IMG/VR virus record: IMGVR_UViG_3300045988_134234
Span: 1 to 55,008 of that record
Reading direction: 5' to 3' (one strand)
DNA from: a virus
Taxonomy: Duplodnaviria; Heunggongvirae; Uroviricota; Caudoviricetes
DNA: 55,008 bases
Below, one piece after another: positions 4,380 to 45,462 of this stretch; the stretch's first letter is position 1, and the number at the start of each line of letters is the position of its first letter. The notes beneath the pieces are model-generated. The model saw only the letters and a program-made list of their open reading frames with translations, searched no databases and was not told the DNA's origin. The position numbers were made by a program, and so were the translations under genes.

Positions 4380-4640
4380 TTGGCAGCCTCCTTTGACTAA
4401 GTTAAGGAGCTACCGCGTGAGGTTCCAATCTCAATGGCGGTAGCACTGACTGGGTTGGAACTACCGGCGTCAAAGGGAACCGGCCTGCCTTTCGGCAGCC
4501 CAGCCAGCACTACCATTGATCTCTGAGCTAAACGCTACGTATGGCTGTGCGATGGCGTGACACAAAAAAAGACGCTTTCGGCGTCTGTGTCGCCTTTGAC
4601 ATTATCCGGGGTTCCAATCCCGGCACCCGTTTTTCTAAGG
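4380..4640 (-). ncRNA. structured leader / candidate antisense-regulatory RNA (C4-like hypothesis)
   Basis: About 260 nt untranslated leader with repeated GATTGGAACC elements and a complementary GTTCCAACC element, multiple hairpins, and an anti-SD hairpin (CTCCTT...AAGGAG) sequestering the RBS of the 71-aa gene. Confidence 0.25.
4562..4586 (-). terminator. rho-independent terminator (minus strand)
   Basis: GACGC-cgaaa-GCGTC hairpin followed by T7 on minus strand. Confidence 0.55.
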
Positions 4641-4690
4641 TGCCGTAGAAATATACCTCACGATAATGCCAGGGCGCAACAGTCAGTATT

Positions 4691-14718: not shown

Positions 14719-15074
14719 TTAATCGAACCAAACTGGAGCACATCCTCGAGTATGCCAGGCAGCAGAGGCGCTTTGGCCAGCTTTGTAAAATTCTGCCAGG
14801 AGATATGGTTGAAATCGTGGAGATTGCCATGCGTAAGACTGGCAACTCTCCGGTAACTCCGGATAGTTGGATAAGCTGTAGTGAGCGAATGCCAAATGAT
14901 GGTCAGCACGTAATTATTTTATGTGATGGCGCATTCGTTCTTTATGCGCAATATCGAGACGGAGAGTTTTTCGATATTGTCCGCAATGGTGATGAATTTT
15001 TCGAAACACAGAGTCACAATGTAACCGACTGGATGCCTCTACCAGAACCGCCTCAGGAGGTTAACCGTGGCTAA
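14715..15074 (+). CDS. DUF551-like phage protein
   Basis: C-terminal VTDWMPLPEPP signature. Confidence 0.5.
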   Translation: MINRTKLEHILEYARQQRRFGQLCKILPGDMVEIVEIAMRKTGNSPVTPDSWISCSERMPNDGQHVIILCDGAFVLYAQYRDGEFFDIVRNGDEFFETQSHNVTDWMPLPEPPQEVNRG

Positions 15075-15250
15075 CCTGCAACTTATCCTCAAAGGTGAAA
15101 AGATTTGAGGATTCGCATCATTAATAACACCGACAAGCATCCGGATGATTATTTGGATTGCTCGTTAGCAGAGCGCGTGGAATTGATATAAGAGAATCTC
15201 CGCACATCGGCAACACACAGCTAAGTATGTTCGCAATAAAGGTTAAATCA

Positions 15251-15652
15251 ATGGCTAAATTTCGGAGAACTATTATTTTTCTGGCAATGTTATCTGCCTG
15301 CCATTTATCACATGCATCGGTTATTGTTGCAACCGCCGCAACAACGGCAGCAATTAGCGCCTCAGCCGCAAGCGAGCAGGAGCAACGCACTGCAATCAAT
15401 GCATCCGCAAATACCACCACTGTAGCAGTCACGCAAGATAAGCCAAATATAGGCTTTGTTACTTGCGGAAAACGGCATGGAGAGACGGTCGGTTCTCTTG
15501 GTTGCGCAGTGTGGCATGACGAACGAGCAGAAATTCCGTGGAAATCATGGCCTGGTTACATTCTTGGCGAAAAGATACCCACCAGCTATGAAGTAAATGC
15601 TATTTCGTTCGATCAATATAACAGAGTCGCAACGGTTTACTTTTCTTATTAA
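15251..15652 (+). CDS. putative lipoprotein
   Basis: Internal ATG of ORF 15158..15652; MAKFRRTIIFLAMLSAC lipobox-like signal. Confidence 0.45.
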   Translation: MAKFRRTIIFLAMLSACHLSHASVIVATAATTAAISASAASEQEQRTAINASANTTTVAVTQDKPNIGFVTCGKRHGETVGSLGCAVWHDERAEIPWKSWPGYILGEKIPTSYEVNAISFDQYNRVATVYFSY

Positions 15653-15658
15653 CACGGA

Positions 15659-15958
15659 GTGATTATGTGGCGCGGTAATAATCATGGCGGAAGCCAGATG
15701 ATACTTACCGAATATAAGCTAGACCACAAAACCAATAAATCACGCTCAGTATATTTGCTCCGGCACAATAGCCGCGTAAGGAACACCGTGCTGGAGCAAA
15801 ATCTGACCGTTGAAATGGATAATTTGGGAAACTTCAAGCCAACAATATCGCTTGATGATTTTCCTCGTGGTTTAAGCGAAAGAGAAGCAATGCTGAAATT
15901 AGCAGAATGGCTACAAAGATTGAGCATTGTTATTGAAGATAACTGGAGTCAACCATAA
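15659..15958 (+). CDS. hypothetical protein (99 aa)
   Basis: ORF only. Confidence 0.4.
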   Translation: MIMWRGNNHGGSQMILTEYKLDHKTNKSRSVYLLRHNSRVRNTVLEQNLTVEMDNLGNFKPTISLDDFPRGLSEREAMLKLAEWLQRLSIVIEDNWSQP

Positions 15959-16041
15959 TGAAAAACAGAAAGAAATTTTGGATTACTTTTTTTGTTTGTA
16001 TGCCTTTGCGGTTTATTTGTTTTATTAGCTGGTGGTGTTAA
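15958..16041 (+). CDS. possible tiny hydrophobic peptide (~27 aa)
   Basis: MKNRKKFWITFFVCMPLRF...; start overlaps upstream stop (TAATG); approximate coordinates. Confidence 0.2.
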   Translation: MKNRKKFWITFFVCMPLRFICFISWWC

Positions 16042-16155
16042 ATGGGGTACGGTGGGGTGTGGTTTTTGGAGTGGGCTTACTCTTTTCGCAGCCTGGCTTA
16101 TCGCCAACTTTGAGTCAGGCGGAGGGTATTGGTAAGTGGTCTTATTCCCCACTTC

Positions 16156-16207
16156 ATAACGGATATCACGCTCGTGATAACGGATATTCCAATTTTGATA
16201 ACGGATA
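16156..16207. repeat. three direct repeats of (T)GATAACGGATA phased at 21 bp
   Basis: Copies at about 16156, 16177 and 16198 immediately upstream of the 16215 ATG. Confidence 0.6.
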
Positions 16208-16214
16208 AGGCCAA

Positions 16215-16424
16215 ATGAAGCATTTTTTAAGGTTGGCATTTGTTCTGGCGCTATTTGCTCCTCCGGCTGCGATGGCTGGAGAACAGCAACATTGCACAAA
16301 AGAGAATGAACACCCTTTCATCGTTATTCAATGTGATGATGGAACGGTGACAGTAGTTAATGTAAGAGATAAACGTGCAGCCGTATGCCGTAAAGGCGAA
16401 CCATGCAAGGAAATAAAACTATGA
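16215..16424 (+). CDS. small Cys-containing secreted protein
   Basis: MKHFLRLAFVLALFAPPAAMA signal-like N-terminus. Confidence 0.5.
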   Translation: MKHFLRLAFVLALFAPPAAMAGEQQHCTKENEHPFIVIQCDDGTVTVVNVRDKRAAVCRKGEPCKEIKL

Positions 16425-17218
16425 CTAAAATCACTAAATTTCGCATATCAGAGATTATTGCACGCATCGAAATGTATGGACACGGCGCTGGATACACGGC
16501 GGATGAGGTATTGGAGCTTGCCCAAATAGCGTTAGCAACCTGCAAAGACGGTGAGAGTATAAAGCTGATTGACTTGTTGGTGCTGGAGCTGCCAAAGCGT
16601 GGAGGGTGGCCTGATGATGTGCTCGATTGTCGCATGGTTAGAGAGGACTGCTGTGAACCATCATATGGTTTCTTTGCTTTTGGCTCTGATCCAGCGAAAA
16701 GCCCGCGTGGGCGCAATTTTTGCCTTGAGGTCAGGCTTCCGATAAGTAACCTTGATCGCGAGGAATACACGGAAATAATTTCGCGCAAACAATACGAAGA
16801 GGCTCTTGAAGCATCCAATAAGTTAAATTTTGAGCAATGGCTGGGACAACAACGCGAAAAAATCGACCTGGACTGCGGTTGTGTGTCTACTGAAACATTC
16901 ATGCACTGGCTGCGGGTAGCCTATGAATCTGGCAACCGTCTGGATACTCATCCACAAGAGGTGCCGAAGCCAAGAGTAAGCACAACTCTGGAAAGGAGCT
17001 ATCTTGAAACTGCATTAAAGATTAAGGCAGGCCATACGCTAGGCGTCATTGATGCCATGTTGGTTCATGAAATGGCGAAGGCTTTACTACCAGAAATTCC
17101 CGCGAATACGCCTACGCAAGTTCTGGCGCTAATGAACAAACACAATCTGCCCAGGGAAGCATTCTGGTGCTTTGACCATGAACAGTGGAGATACTCATGC
17201 TATGAATGCCGGTATTAA
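16403..17218 (+). CDS. hypothetical protein (271 aa)
   Basis: ORF only. Confidence 0.45.
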   Translation: MQGNKTMTKITKFRISEIIARIEMYGHGAGYTADEVLELAQIALATCKDGESIKLIDLLVLELPKRGGWPDDVLDCRMVREDCCEPSYGFFAFGSDPAKSPRGRNFCLEVRLPISNLDREEYTEIISRKQYEEALEASNKLNFEQWLGQQREKIDLDCGCVSTETFMHWLRVAYESGNRLDTHPQEVPKPRVSTTLERSYLETALKIKAGHTLGVIDAMLVHEMAKALLPEIPANTPTQVLALMNKHNLPREAFWCFDHEQWRYSCYECRY

Positions 17219-17274
17219 TGATGACTGGTGAGCTTGTAGTTCTGGCTACCCGCAGCACCCCTGGTTACTACAAA

Positions 17275-17625
17275 TCATTGTAGTGGGTGGCATTTAACGA
17301 AATCGATCACCCTATCCTGAACTTCAGAAAGAAGGGCTTTTTCACGCGCCAGGACGTCAGGATATTGACGTTCTGGCCTTACCAGATGCCGGAGCTTCCC
17401 ATTAAGCAGAATGGCCTCAGAAAACACTTTTACGCTGTGCTTTATCCCCTCTGTTTCACTTTTCAACGTCAAAATAAAGCGCAATTGCTTATTAGCCTGA
17501 TTCAGATTCAATACACGAATTTGCAGTTCGTCTATGCTGTTTCGCAATGGGATTGATGCCACCACACTGGTGCAGTCTCTGATTGTCTGAATTGAACGGC
17601 TAACATTGAGAACGTTATTGTGCAT
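17275..17625 (-). CDS. hypothetical protein (116 aa)
   Basis: ORF on opposite strand between same-strand arrays. Confidence 0.3.
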   Translation of the reverse strand: MHNNVLNVSRSIQTIRDCTSVVASIPLRNSIDELQIRVLNLNQANKQLRFILTLKSETEGIKHSVKVFSEAILLNGKLRHLVRPERQYPDVLAREKALLSEVQDRVIDFVKCHPLQ

Positions 17626-17657: not shown

Positions 17658-17909
17658 GTGTCAGATCGAAATATAGCAGCTAAAAGCCAGGAAGAGCGAG
17701 ACAAGGTGAACGTAGACCTTGCCGCCAGCGGCGTTGCTTACAAAGAACGCCTGAATATACCCGTGATTGCAGAGCAGGTGGCCCGTGAGCAACCGGAAAA
17801 CCTGCGCGCCTATTTCATGGAACGGCTACGGCACTACCGGCAGTTAAGCCTCCAGTTGCCAAAAGGGAGCGATCCGGTGTATCAGAACGAGGATGCACCA
17901 AAAAAATAA
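17658..17909 (+). CDS. hot: DNA polymerase III theta (HolE)-like protein, P1 Hot-like
   Basis: [43 protein letters not shown] aligns with recalled E. coli HolE ([43 protein letters not shown]). Confidence 0.75.
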
Positions 17910-18285
17910 CGGCAAGATGGGGGAGACATTAAACATGCTTAACTATCACGACAACACGCGTTCTATGCAGACAATCCGCACCAATACAGCGGTGGTCGAT
18001 AGCTTTCCTGTACATACTCAAGGCCGTGAAGATACCGTGGAAGTGCGACGCATGTTGTGTCGCCGGTCACCAGGCCACCAGCACTTCATCGTAACGTTTA
18101 AAAGCGATGTAGAGCGCGCCGAGAAAATCTCTAACTCCACATCTCTGGTTAAGCCGTTGGCGGAGGTTATTGTGCGCAACAATAAGGCGCGCTTTGTCCT
18201 TGAGGAGCATCATTCTGATTTTAATGAAAAAATTGAGTCAAGCATTTTGCAATATATGAATGGCAAGTTCACGCCACCAATGTGA
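17893..18285 (+). CDS. hypothetical protein (130 aa)
   Basis: ORF between hot-like and humD-like genes. Confidence 0.4.
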
Positions 18286-19483: not shown

Positions 19484-20590
19484 TCACTCAATGATTTTTT
19501 CTGCTGTCAGCCAGCTAACTTCTTGCCTGTCTTTCGGCGGTTTTAGCATGTGGGCGTATTCAGCGACATTCTCCCACGGAATTGTTTTTGCCCACTCAAC
19601 GATAGCATTGTGATCTGCAGTGAAGAGTGGAATGGTGTGCGATTTCAACCACTCTAATGTTGTAACGCCATGTTTTTTGGCGTGGTGCTGTGCATGATGC
19701 CGGGCTATCACTAGTAATGGCATTGTCCATTCACTACCATCATGCATCGTAAAGCGCATTGTTTTCGGCATATCTGATTCAAGAACAGCCTCCCGAATAC
19801 CAGGGAACTCACCAAGAACCATACGACGGTAGTAATCGCTATTTTTACCACCATATATTTCTGCAATGTTATCAAGATAACCTTGAGAAATAATGGGGGT
19901 ATCTTCTGCGTTCAACTTGATGGCTGTATAAATACCACATGGATTTTCTTCAGATTTTGCACGACCATGATGGGAATCGTAAAAGTGTCCATGCTCCTCC
20001 TCTGAAGGAGCGGACATTAAAAGTATACGTGAATCGTCACTTACTAACGATGCTCTTAACATGCTGAATAGCCGATCGCCAGCAAGAGCCGCCTCCGTAA
20101 CAATGATTAAAAGATGTTCAGCATAATATCCACCGAAACCTTCCTCATAATTTCGGTGATATGGCTTAATTTCGCAGCCCCAATATTCCCGGTAACGATG
20201 AGTGATGCCGTTTCCGTCGACTTTAAAATATTCTCCCAGCAATGGGATTCTGTTACTGACTCTATCCCAATACGTACTTATGTATTGGATAACTTGCCTG
20301 CGACAATTATAGAACTTTGGGGAAACAATGACCGTTTTAGACTCAGGCATCAGGATTGTATAAAGAATACTAATTATAGCCATAACCGTCTTTTGGCCTA
20401 TCCCTTCAGGAGTGGTGACGCTGACTGCTGAACCTTTTTGTTGAATCGCCTCAACAATTAGCTTTTGCTGGTGGGTTAACTTAACACCCATCAACTCTTC
20501 TGCTGCTAATGCCCAGTCATGGCTATATTTGCTTACCAGCTCTCTCCACTCTGGTAATTCGGTGATGTTTTTAGGCGTCAGCATCAGCAT
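19484..20590 (-). CDS. truncated terminase-large-subunit ATPase-domain paralog with degenerate Walker motifs
   Basis: Aligns by eye to N-terminal half of window TerL 25963..27471 (HQQKLIVEAIQQKGSAVSVTT vs HQQQQIIQSVQETGSRTTVTS; YYAEHLLIIVTEAA vs EHAEHLLLILDEAS; HFYDSHHGRAKSEENP vs YFYESHHSRAKAEGNP); Walker A GHGTGKS replaced by PEGIGQK, Walker B DE by TE; no nuclease domain. Confidence 0.65.
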   Translation of the reverse strand: MLMLTPKNITELPEWRELVSKYSHDWALAAEELMGVKLTHQQKLIVEAIQQKGSAVSVTTPEGIGQKTVMAIISILYTILMPESKTVIVSPKFYNCRRQVIQYISTYWDRVSNRIPLLGEYFKVDGNGITHRYREYWGCEIKPYHRNYEEGFGGYYAEHLLIIVTEAALAGDRLFSMLRASLVSDDSRILLMSAPSEEEHGHFYDSHHGRAKSEENPCGIYTAIKLNAEDTPIISQGYLDNIAEIYGGKNSDYYRRMVLGEFPGIREAVLESDMPKTMRFTMHDGSEWTMPLLVIARHHAQHHAKKHGVTTLEWLKSHTIPLFTADHNAIVEWAKTIPWENVAEYAHMLKPPKDRQEVSWLTAEKIIE

Positions 20591-30741: not shown

Positions 30742-30817
30742 TGGTGGCCCCTACCGGACTTGAACCGGTGACCGTGCGATTATGAGTCGCCCGCTCTAAC
30801 CACTGAGCTAAGGGGCC
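30742..30817 (-). tRNA. tRNA anticodon CAU (Met or Ile2 via lysidine)
   Basis: RC reads GGCCCCTTAGCTCAGTGGTTAGAGC...CTCATAA...GGTTCAAGTCC...GGGGCCACCA; resembles recalled E. coli ileX/ileY-type tRNA. Confidence 0.8.
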
Positions 30818-30826
30818 AGATTACTG

Positions 30827-30955
30827 TTAATTACGCTTACGCTTTTTGCCAGAACCGCGTAAGGCTTTTGCCGCTTGCTCTACCCCGTATGCAACCACCA
30901 GCAGAAACAATAATGTCCACTCCGGGTTTTTATCGGCAAACGCCCAAAAATCCAT
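30827..30955 (-). CDS. possible small membrane peptide (~42 aa)
   Basis: MDFWAFADKNPEWTLLFLLVVAYG...; AGGTGG RBS-like upstream; approximate coordinates. Confidence 0.3.
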   Translation of the reverse strand: MDFWAFADKNPEWTLLFLLVVAYGVEQAAKALRGSGKKRKRN

Positions 30956-31133
30956 CACTTGCAGCCACCTTTTAAGACAAAACGCCATTGCTGTTAGGTT
31001 GCGGTGCCGGGTGCCTCCCGGTGACGTTAACCAGTTAACAATTAACGCCGGATCACTTATGGATTCTCGTTACGCCAGTAAAAAGACCACCTTTACTGTT
31101 TTAACTGTTCCGCGTGCGCTTAGCCGCATTCAC

Positions 31134-31246
31134 CGCAATGGTAAGAGCATTTGGCTGACTGGGCGGCGATGACGCCTGTACGCATTTGGTGATCCGGTTC
31201 TGCTTCCGGCATTCGCTTAATTAGCCAAATACTCTTAACGTTGCGA
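31134..31246. repeat. long-hairpin family unit B (abuts 3' end of tRNA-Ser)
   Basis: CGCAATGGTAAGAGCATTT ... AAATACTCTTAACGTTGCG. Confidence 0.45.
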
Positions 31247-31333
31247 TGGCGGAGAGTAATGGAATCGAACCATCATCGCTTGCGCGACGGGACGGTTTTC
31301 AAGACCGCTTGAGCACCATGCTCCCTACTCTCC
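31247..31333 (-). tRNA. tRNA-Ser (anticodon UGA), class II with long variable arm
   Basis: RC reads GGAGAGT...GCGGTCTTGAAAACCGT (anticodon TGA)...long variable arm...GGTTCGATTCC...ACTCTCCGCCA. Confidence 0.65.
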
Positions 31334-31483
31334 AGTGATTGTGGTGGTCGGTACTGATCTCCGACTGCGCCTCTTTTTTTCATAGCGCATAAGGCCGGTC
31401 AGTGCGCTTGATGACTGAGGCATCGATATTTACTACGCCGCCTCGTTGCCATAGGGCGGACTTGCGCGCCAGCAACGCGCATT

Positions 31484-31573
31484 CACCACAACGGAAAGAG
31501 CATTTATGGCTCGCATCGCGGGAAAAAGCCCACGGTAGAGAGTCGAACTCTACAAATGCTCTTACCTGTTGTG
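31484..31573. repeat. long-hairpin family unit C with internal T-loop-like hairpin
   Basis: CACCACAACGGAAAGAGCATTT ... AAATGCTCTTACCTGTTGTG; internal GTAGAG-TTCGACT-CTCTAC on minus strand. Confidence 0.45.
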
Positions 31574-31698
31574 TTGTGATGACCGGTGCTGATCTCCGGC
31601 TTGCGGTAATTTCAGACTCTCACGGGCGTTTAATTGCCCCGCCGAACAGCTCTTTTCCGCAATAGCTGCAATGTCTTTCGCGCATCAGCCTGCGCATT

Positions 31699-31788
31699 CA
31701 TCACAACGGTAAGGGTACTTCGTAGGGATTCGAACCCTCTGCCAAGCTCGGCGATCTCCGACGTCGCAAAATACCCTTACCTGTTGTG
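31699..31788. repeat. long-hairpin family unit D with internal T-arm-like GGGTTCGAATCCC (abuts tRNA-Thr)
   Basis: CATCACAACGGTAAGGGTA ... TACCCTTACCTGTTGTG; tRNA-like but lacks D-arm and CCA. Confidence 0.45.
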
Positions 31789-31789
31789 C

Positions 31790-31865
31790 TGGTGCCGATT
31801 AACGGACTCGAACCGCTGACATCCTGCTTACAAGGCAGGCGCTCTACCAACTGAGCTAAACCGGC
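31790..31865 (-). tRNA. tRNA-Thr (anticodon UGU)
   Basis: RC reads GCCGGTTTAGCTCAGTTGGTAGAGC GCCTGCCTTGTAAGCAGG...GGTTCGAGTCC...AATCGGCACCA. Confidence 0.8.
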
Positions 31866-31867
31866 AT

Positions 31868-31943
31868 TGGCGATGGTGGATGGATTTGAACCATCGACCC
31901 GTTGATTAACAGTCAACCGCTCTAACCGCTGAGCTACACCATC
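31868..31943 (-). tRNA. tRNA-Asn (anticodon GUU)
   Basis: RC reads GATGGTGTAGCTCAGCGGTTAGAGC GGTTGACTGTTAATCAACG...GGTTCAAATCC...CACCATCGCCA. Confidence 0.8.
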
Positions 31944-45159: not shown

Positions 45160-45360
45160 CAACCTGCGACCCGCTGTCAAACAGGTGGCAGGACGTGACA
45201 GGGTTGACAGACTGGCACTTACGAAACCAGCAGGCCGAAGCCTCCCCATCACGCCCCACCATAATTCGGGCGTAACGTGGTTTTACGGACACAAAAATAC
45301 CGCAATATCGGAAATGTGCGGTTGTCCGCGTAAGTATTCAGGCTGTCAAACCTGGTCGCA
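45160..45360. repeat. TGTCAAAC / GTTGACAG short repeats in leader region
   Basis: CGCTGTCAAACAGG, GGGTTGACAGACTGG, GGCTGTCAAACCTGG: two direct copies plus one complementary copy. Confidence 0.4.
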
Positions 45361-45462
45361 GAATTTGCTACGACGGCATGAATATAAGCCTGAACATTAG
45401 AAAGATCAACAGAATTTTTATCAAATGCTGTTTTTTAGTGACAATGTAAATCATACATTCTT

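Follow-up and report, generated by a model that had tools for sequence, protein, structure and literature searches.

A 21-bp direct-repeat array before a small secreted-protein gene of a P1/D6-like phage-plasmid: a possible copy of a horizontally spreading, frame-compatible minisatellite

An array of three 21-bp direct repeats, located just before the start codon of a small secreted-protein gene, was analysed in a stretch of viral DNA of 55,008 bases (hereafter the window, i.e. the whole stretch that was studied). Our preferred reading, to which we give a little less than an even chance, is that this array is one copy of a horizontally spreading, frame-compatible minisatellite placed at a mosaic joint, with the local role of a translationally coupled upstream ORF or a spacer. 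The parts of this reading differ in firmness: that the array is such a cassette we regard as very likely, and the local mechanism is more doubtful, because the translation of the repeats was deduced from the sequence and the start signals of the mini-ORF are weak. The repeats are discretely present or absent among relatives, vary in copy number, occur in both orientations, have a core that is conserved at the nucleotide level and end in an ATGA overlap with the downstream start codon.

A first-pass annotation of the DNA had described three repeats spaced exactly 21 bp apart immediately upstream of a secreted-protein gene with a signal peptide and cysteines. Direct reading and a repeat search bore this description out (Table 1). 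The positions given in that annotation (16156, 16177 and 16198) are the starts of the common 10-mer ATAACGGATA, and the full 12-mer, T[C/G]ATAACGGATA, starts 2 nt earlier in each copy, the first copy beginning with TC and not with TG. The array reads ..cacTTCATAACGGATATcacgctcGTGATAACGGATATtccaattTTGATAACGGATAAGGccaaATG and takes up most of the 79-nt gap between an upstream membrane-protein ORF and the secreted-protein gene; its third core ends 7 nt from the ATG at 16215, and the adjoining AAGG (AAAG or AATG in some haplotypes) is the Shine-Dalgarno-like element of that gene. The G at 16174 precedes core 2 and thereby creates a GTG (16174-16176), a possible start codon in the open frame of the core.

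Table 1 Features of the array and its surroundings (positions in the window)
Feature	Position	Strand	Remarks
Upstream small membrane-protein ORF, 58 codons	15958..16135	+	stop codon TAA at 16133-16135
Only stop-free frame through the cores (ATA ACG GAT = Ile-Thr-Asp)	16129..16218	+	peptide LVSGLIPHFITDITLVITDIPILITDKAK; translation inferred
Cassette as a unit, three 21-bp units, ~59 bp	16152..16210	+	homology edges against L005 and L411
Repeat core 1, TCATAACGGATA	16154..16165	+	identical in 8/8 haplotypes
Repeat core 2, TGATAACGGATA	16175..16186	+	sole variant in L005 (GGATAT to GGACAA)
Repeat core 3, TGATAACGGATA	16196..16207	+	3' end merges into AAGG (16207-16210)
Downstream secreted four-Cys protein gene, 69 aa, PHROG 20764	16215..16424	+	function not known

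The search for further copies of the 12-mer, suggested in the same annotation, was performed on both strands of the 55,008 bases, and the exact 10-mer ATAACGGATA was found in the array only. With up to one mismatch allowed, the 10-mer gave 9 matches against 2.9 expected (none of 100 shuffles reached 9), and no enrichment of the 12-mer was seen outside the array in the 55 kb (12 matches against 7.0 expected at up to two mismatches). The array was not reported by Tandem Repeats Finder, because its spacers differ, and Rfam 15 gave no family at the gathering threshold for positions 16100-16250. CRISPR and type III antitoxin repeats were ruled out (units too short, and spacers that do not resemble units), and among the resemblances to IHF, Fur, DnaA, LacI-family, HipB, FliA and RfaH-ops sites, considered by sequence inspection only, none fits the invariant core. 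Full-text literature searches with ATAACGGATA or its complement led to nothing beyond primers and unrelated sequences, and to no published motif, and the literature on 21-bp repeats in phages likewise gave no match; as far as these searches reach, no description of the presumed repeat-cassette family was found.

As to the origin of the window, the region 15000-17500 was compared by BLAST, which revealed matches to ~90-kb non-mobilizable plasmids of E. coli, Salmonella and Shigella (identity up to 98%) and partial matches to Punavirus P1, RCS47, SJ46 and D6. In the closest annotated relative, pMUB-MIN14-1, the genes for DNA polymerase III theta (hot), an S24 peptidase (humD) and phd lie just downstream. 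These relatives and neighbours identify a P1/D6-like phage-plasmid as the source of the window. The array is surrounded by tightly packed, co-oriented accessory genes, whose products include Ead/Ea22-like and DUF551 proteins and PHROG-only proteins of unknown function. The 69-aa protein encoded downstream carries a Sec-type signal peptide (MKHFLRLAFVLALFAPPAAMA|GEQQ) and four cysteines in its mature part, both recognised by inspection. It belongs to a small, unnamed family, with homologues in P1/D6-like phage-plasmids and in array-free IncI2 plasmids, where the gene adjoins type IV secretion genes (in L006, at 1467-1718, it lies just upstream of them). At least three exchangeable signal-peptide types are found in this family on a nearly constant mature part.

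Several other features of the window were recorded. A run of seven T residues (15987-15993) frameshifts the 58-codon membrane ORF (MKNRKKFWITFLFVCLCG..GGYW in relatives), with six T in L001 and L007; the explanation is a sequencing error, a genuine inactivation or slippage in the run. The same ORF contains a Chi sequence (GCTGGTGG, 16028-16035, + strand), ~120 bp 5' of the array. Two divergent ORFs, at 17275-17625 (-) and 17893-18285 (+), flank hot and have an N-terminal motif in common (..SIQTIRDCTSVVASIPL..), so that they look like diverged paralogues. Just after doc, a 368-aa ORF on the minus strand (19484-20590) resembles, by eye, the N-terminal ATPase part of a PacB-type large terminase (L259), with PEGIGQKT at the Walker A position versus GHGTGKSS in L259; this ORF may encode a terminase paralogue that has degenerated or been repurposed. 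Two C4 antisense RNA genes were identified with Rfam on the minus strand (4433-4520 and 45181-45266), the first adjoined by an IsrK-like Hfq-binding RNA (4565-4643) and the second by a c4-a1b1 target element (45335-45387), both also on the minus strand; the window therefore holds two immunity-type antisense modules, at 4433-4643 and 45181-45387. A tRNA cluster (30742-31943, minus strand) comprises a CAU tRNA (called Met, possibly of the AUA-reading Ile2 type), Ser-UGA, Thr-UGU and Asn-GUU. The codons AUA-ACG in one frame of the repeat core and AAC in another could potentially be served by these tRNAs, which may be a coincidence.

The window-type array is kept in eight haplotypes from phage-plasmids of E. 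coli, E. marmotae and Salmonella (plasmids, viral contigs and assemblies), with three copies in every case. Among 5,426 complete E. coli genomes it was present in 20 (coverage of at least 80%), on plasmids of ~90-130 kb in each case and never on a chromosome, and in PLSDB 22 plasmids cover at least 80% of a query composed of the membrane ORF, the array and the gene. With the 63-bp cassette alone as a BLAST query, E. coli genomes gave no match, which is probably an effect of low-complexity filtering. Pattern scans of genome and metagenome contigs, whose results were dominated by unrelated GGATAAC heptamer microsatellites and coding repeats, added at least one further window-type locus among the matches listed. 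There is one array only in the 55-kb window, as there is in the 87-kb Pantoea plasmid pPSP-26e.

All substitutions but one in the eight haplotypes fall outside the 10-mer cores. The exception is the Salmonella IncY relative L005, in which copy 2 has changed at one position of its 12-nt core and at another position one base further on. Between the window and L005, in which the adjacent gene is 81% identical, the cores differ at 1/36 positions and the spacers at 9/18 (Fisher p = 7e-5), and a comparison with the third codon positions in that gene likewise shows less change in the cores (P = 4e-5). The cores are constrained at the nucleotide level, and the spacers are free of such constraint. This contrast, at one orthologous non-coding locus, points to a function in place and speaks against the cassette reading, since, with its spacers diverging, an element that is purely selfish or a relic would have had to renew its cores again and again by conversion from other arrays.

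The array is missing in several relatives that carry the secreted-protein gene. In the D6-like plasmids L408 and L409, the gene has a different signal peptide and is preceded neither by the array nor by the membrane ORF; in L411-413, an array-free gene with the same signal-peptide type overlaps an upstream 279-aa gene by ATGA; and in L417 and L418, the membrane ORF overlaps the secreted-protein gene directly. The first-pass annotation had named the absence of the repeats from close relatives with identical expression as evidence against a binding array; of this pair, it is the absence that was found, in all three of these arrangements. The edges of the array are sharp. On the left, homology with L005 begins at 16152, exactly at the array edge, and on the right, homology with the array-less L411 begins just past the array (CAAATGA). 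The three array-less arrangements and these edges together define the array as an optional, sharply bounded insert of ~59 bp.

The core frame listed in Table 1 is open from 16114, and the TTG at 16129 overlaps the stop codon of the upstream ORF. In all haplotypes this frame ends with TGA (16216-18) over the ATG at 16215, forming an ATGA overlap with -4 spacing. Besides this end, all haplotypes share the possible starts GTG16174 and TTG16195, both lying within the repeat; TTG 16129 is absent from the haplotypes other than that of the window. In the E. marmotae-type haplotype (L004, 1584-1760; L414, 1328-1504) the core frame is open for 58 codons from an ATG; it overlaps the membrane ORF in another frame and is probably not a gene.

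In the array-less L411, the upstream gene ends in ..Ser-Lys-stop, matching the end of the core frame (..Ala-Lys-stop). A functionless, decayed 3' end of a coding heptad repeat, left behind after a swap of the gene body, would account for this likeness (..AK* against ..SK*) and for the coincidence of the left breakpoint against L005 with the array edge, and the conservation would then reflect recent common ancestry. We find such a remnant distinctly improbable: the cores are far more conserved than the spacers and the third codon positions of the adjacent gene, and the substitutions in the eight haplotypes avoid the cores with one exception.

Scanning of IMG/VR with the repeat pattern revealed about 10 distinct contexts with 2-4 copies of T[C/G]ATAACGGATA; the arrays belong to temperate phages and phage-plasmids of Enterobacterales. 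These contexts include: (i) five in which the array lies in frame as (hydrophobic)-Ile-Thr-Asp-x-x-x heptads (L129 type, L241 type, L255, L273 and L146), occupying linkers of small mosaic proteins in an Ea22/DUF551 neighbourhood, (ii) a terminase context, in which the array lies within the last 60-90 bp of a 437-aa gene of Pantoea pPSP-26e-type P1-like phage-plasmids, and (iii) three non-coding or frame-breaking contexts (L279, L246 and L230 type), with intact cores spaced 19 or 22 bp apart. In L279 a gene ends within copy 1, copies 2-3 being intergenic. In the L230 type (8 loci) the array follows the antiterminator gene Q and precedes the holin gene; it lies within a leader that extends from a promoter-like site to terminator-like hairpins, and is antisense to this leader. 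Overall, the arrays are in sense orientation in 7/10 contexts and antisense to the local transcript in pacA and the Q-holin leader.

Filled and empty sites could be compared directly in two of these contexts. In the L129/L419 family, a protein-based search recovered 10 homologues reading ..LEQQE|RGDGWIEWGGG.. (..CAG CAG GAG|CGG GGT GAT GGC TGG..), and 5 filled sites have exactly 63 bp (3 x 21) more, inserted in frame between the same codons (ATGATAACGGATAGCCAGCCG GTCATAACGGATAGCGCGGGA GTGATAACGGATAGCGCTGAG). One insert of this family is flanked on both sides by 'GAG', the sole possible trace of insertion. The L419-type family gave only short BLAST matches, to Pantoea phages, which makes its host assignment weak. 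In the terminase context, the 437-aa gene precedes and overlaps the large terminase gene, a position held by the small terminase subunit PacA, and its product is therefore referred to here as putative PacA. Among the 19 intact putative PacA homologues, 12 lack the array and end in ..PPEIDVIPGEDEA (..PPE IDVIPGEDEA*), and 7 distinct loci carry 2, 3 or 4 units, the coding strand being the reverse complement of the core (..E ISVMSDD ESVMTDA LSVMKDK..). The array in pPSP-26e contains a perfect, fresh tandem duplication of one unit. The putative small-terminase tails (L434-L453) consist of one ..E-IDVI-PGEDEA unit or of 2-4 ..E-(I)SVM-(T/S)DD units; the ancestral tail unit already has GTTAT in common with the cassette, which may have been directed to this place by it.

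Arrays in unrelated genes share identities of 17-31 nt that include the spacer, e.g. ATAACGGATAGCGCATC, common to the sense L129 array and an antisense pacA array, so the arrays are related by descent and not by convergence. The filled and empty sites in three families (L129/L419, putative PacA and the secreted-protein family of the window) support a mobile cassette. We found neither a mobilising enzyme nor a target-site rule nor transposition-like ends for it.

The conserved entity is the DNA or its transcript and not the encoded peptide. A logo of 47 distinct units displayed 12 conserved and 9 near-random positions, with core values somewhat inflated by the selection of units at up to one mismatch to the 9-mer ATAACGGAT; in this same set of units, ATAACGGAT is exact in 42 of the 47. 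By comparison, 0/12 Ile-Thr-Asp tripeptides in the long open frames of the window (at least 80 codons) are encoded by ATAACGGAT, and the synonymous third-position variation expected of a heptad repeat kept for its peptide only was not seen in the core units. The consistency of the frame is no evidence for selection on the peptide, since two of the three sense frames of TGATAACGGATA[A/G] hold stops and Ile-Thr-Asp is thus the only frame usable by a coding insert. The conclusion that nucleotides are conserved follows from the codon usage of Ile-Thr-Asp together with the antisense pacA arrays.

The regular spacing had led the first-pass annotation to see in the repeats a cooperative binding array for a regulator. 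One part of this proposal stood, in that the contrast between cores and spacers marks a selected, sequence-specific element; the other part did not, as neither a promoter nor a second site accompanies it. A consensus scan, from which activator-dependent promoters could escape, detected no sigma-70-like promoter in the gap (16136-16214), and no terminator was detected there by the same kind of scan; with no second site in 55 kb, there is no sign of an operator or a regulon. In addition, Pfam revealed no recognisable DNA-binding domain in the neighbouring proteins. The helical phasing on which the proposal leaned is real as to distance (21 and 21 bp). As an argument it is confounded and weighs little, because seven codons likewise make 21 bp and non-coding arrays are less strict in their spacing. 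The array, which the first-pass annotation had set apart from the main operator family, is unrelated to the P1 C1 operator consensus, taken here as ATTGCTCTAATAAATTT. This consensus had 0 matches in the whole window at up to three mismatches, and the immunity specificity of this phage-plasmid presumably differs from that of P1.

In a fuller form of this alternative, a host protein or a widely shared phage protein would bind the three cores cooperatively on one helix face and control transcription into or through the secreted-protein gene. Several direct-repeat operators have a spacing of about two helical turns, namely AraC I1-I2, the XylS sites at Pm and O1-O2 of the P2 C repressor, and the array is like them in its asymmetric, head-to-tail sites ~21-22 bp apart with a ~12-bp specificity core. 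An operator would also explain why the 12-bp core is constrained at the nucleotide level next to free spacers, and the occurrence of arrays in either orientation to local genes, including antisense in a late-operon leader, would favour recognition of DNA over RNA; moreover, the L279 array lies ~50 bp upstream of a promoter-like site. Nevertheless, we consider an operator rather unlikely in the window, where the gap is devoid of promoter-like sites, core 3 ends 7 nt from the ATG within tightly packed co-oriented genes, no further site occurs in 55 kb and no DNA-binding gene accompanies the array. Furthermore, the secreted-protein gene is array-free in several relatives, seven codons explain the 21 bp (19 or 22 bp where non-coding) and no published motif matches. 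The array thus differs from the known direct-repeat operators in being a dispensable, in-frame ORF insert with no promoter, cognate protein or second site.

The location just 5' of a start codon is also natural for translational control. Three AACGGAUA elements on a polycistronic mRNA, bound by an RNA-binding regulator or a small RNA, could repress or tune initiation at the AUG at 16215, the obvious candidate being CsrA, a protein specific for GGA motifs, whose dimer can bridge two sites this far apart; the array contains three GGA motifs 21 nt apart, the last of them 10 nt from the AUG and next to the AAGG of the ribosome-binding site, and 7/10 contexts are on the sense strand. The several GGA motifs, one of them beside a Shine-Dalgarno sequence, recall CsrA-controlled leaders. 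However, the cassette motif is much longer than theirs, invariant, not presented in a hairpin and also found in antisense orientation and within coding regions. The folding of the gap was unremarkable against shuffles (z = -1.07), no significant or conserved structure and no conserved hairpin was found at the array, and the spacers are not conserved. The pacA and Q-holin leader arrays are antisense to the transcript, the invariant 12-nt core goes beyond the known specificity of CsrA, and no interpretable duplex (only unrealistic, long ones) was obtained with the C4 and IsrK-like RNAs of the window or with a MicA sequence. Control at the RNA level is therefore improbable in our judgement.

The first-pass annotation had mentioned iterons as another possibility. 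This was not borne out: no replication gene or origin context adjoins the array, its neighbours are accessory genes, and it is missing in close relatives. A broader version, in which the array is a once-per-genome cis site (replication iterons, a centromere-like, packaging or recombination site) with a free position in the genome, would explain why it is found in different genes of different phages, and has on its side the single array in the window and in pPSP-26e, the independence of location and orientation from the local gene, and the terminase context, the 3' end of a small-subunit gene being a frequent location of pac sites. We regard it as very unlikely, given that the array is missing in close P1/D6-like plasmids and in 12/19 intact PacA homologues and is therefore dispensable, that no replication, partition or packaging gene stands beside it in the window and that neither AT-rich surroundings nor DnaA boxes could be seen when the sequence was read.

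Returning to the preferred reading, the unit of the minisatellite would be a 12-nt core, T[C/G]ATAACGGATA, followed by 9 variable nt, and the cassette would be carried once per genome. In the window it would occupy the joint between the membrane ORF and the secreted-protein gene and would not serve as that gene's own promoter or operator. It may once have formed an in-frame part of the 3' region of an upstream gene, whose body was later replaced by exchanges at the left edge. As the core frame still ends in the ATGA overlap, the likeliest local effect would be that of a short coupled upstream ORF or a spacer: if the Ile-Thr-Asp mini-ORF is translated, as we suppose, its coupling via ATGA would allow the cassette to be tolerated in the operon, with downstream translation not cut off. 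The cassette presumably moves by recombination, and its core would be kept through recognition, either by a recombination function or by a DNA-binding protein. In the first case, use of the core in recombination could preserve it and would also explain the arrays at module junctions. A DNA-binding protein could do the same and would be compatible with one array per genome; as the arrays are orientation-independent, recognition at the DNA level is favoured over an RNA-level mechanism, in which a factor such as CsrA could keep the core through the three GGA motifs. In a bolder version, which we think unlikely, the cassette would be an undescribed phage mini-element, an array of 42-84 bp that is recognised by a dedicated host or phage protein, copied between genomes and landed in frame in linkers and gene junctions, acting either as a 'linker' for recombination, through which domains and genes of mosaic accessory regions are shuffled, or as a portable, once-per-genome binding platform.

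Of the systems with which the cassette was compared, mycobacterial MIRUs, with units of roughly 46-100 bp, provide the closest parallels in layout. Both consist of short tandem units in an intercistronic gap of a row of co-oriented genes, as in the window, and both exhibit presence/absence and copy-number polymorphism (2-4 units in pacA, always 3 in the window type). The internal ORF of the cassette has a stop codon that overlaps the downstream start in all haplotypes (ATGA, -4), and MIRUs are described as mobile elements with start codons as their insertion points, their own ORF being coupled to the gene at -4 nt (PMC12548453); their insertion has been proposed to cost little downstream expression (PMC12548453). 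The differences are that the units measure 21 bp here, each with a sharp 12-nt core and a free 9-nt spacer, that there is one locus per genome versus dozens, and that the cassette is found in phages and phage-plasmids of Enterobacterales, also within coding regions and in both orientations. With unit length and sequence unrelated, we would class it as an analogue of MIRUs and not as a member.

Two further systems combine repeats with coding sequence. In gene O of lambda, the origin iterons lie in a coding linker; they are inverted-repeat sites tied to one replication gene. The likeness is that protein-binding repeats are read through there as an interdomain linker, and the difference is that the cassette core occurs in unrelated accessory genes, a terminase gene and non-coding DNA with no replication context. 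Rickettsia palindromic elements are single palindromes of ~100-150 bp, dispersed in many copies; like the cassette, they are selfish-looking repeats that enter protein-coding genes with the reading frame intact, whereas the cassette is a tandem array of 42-84 bp with no dyad symmetry.

If the cassette reading holds, a regular 21-bp spacing before a gene need not mean a regulator, which would call for caution in the motif-based annotation of phage genomes. A 12-nt core that is carried between unrelated phage genes at mosaic joints would be a testable handle on module exchange in temperate phages. If a protein binds the core, it would constitute a new cis-element common to P1-like and lambdoid phages and, if the parallel drawn above is true, translationally coupled minisatellites of the MIRU type would extend from mycobacterial chromosomes to the phages and phage-plasmids of enterobacteria.
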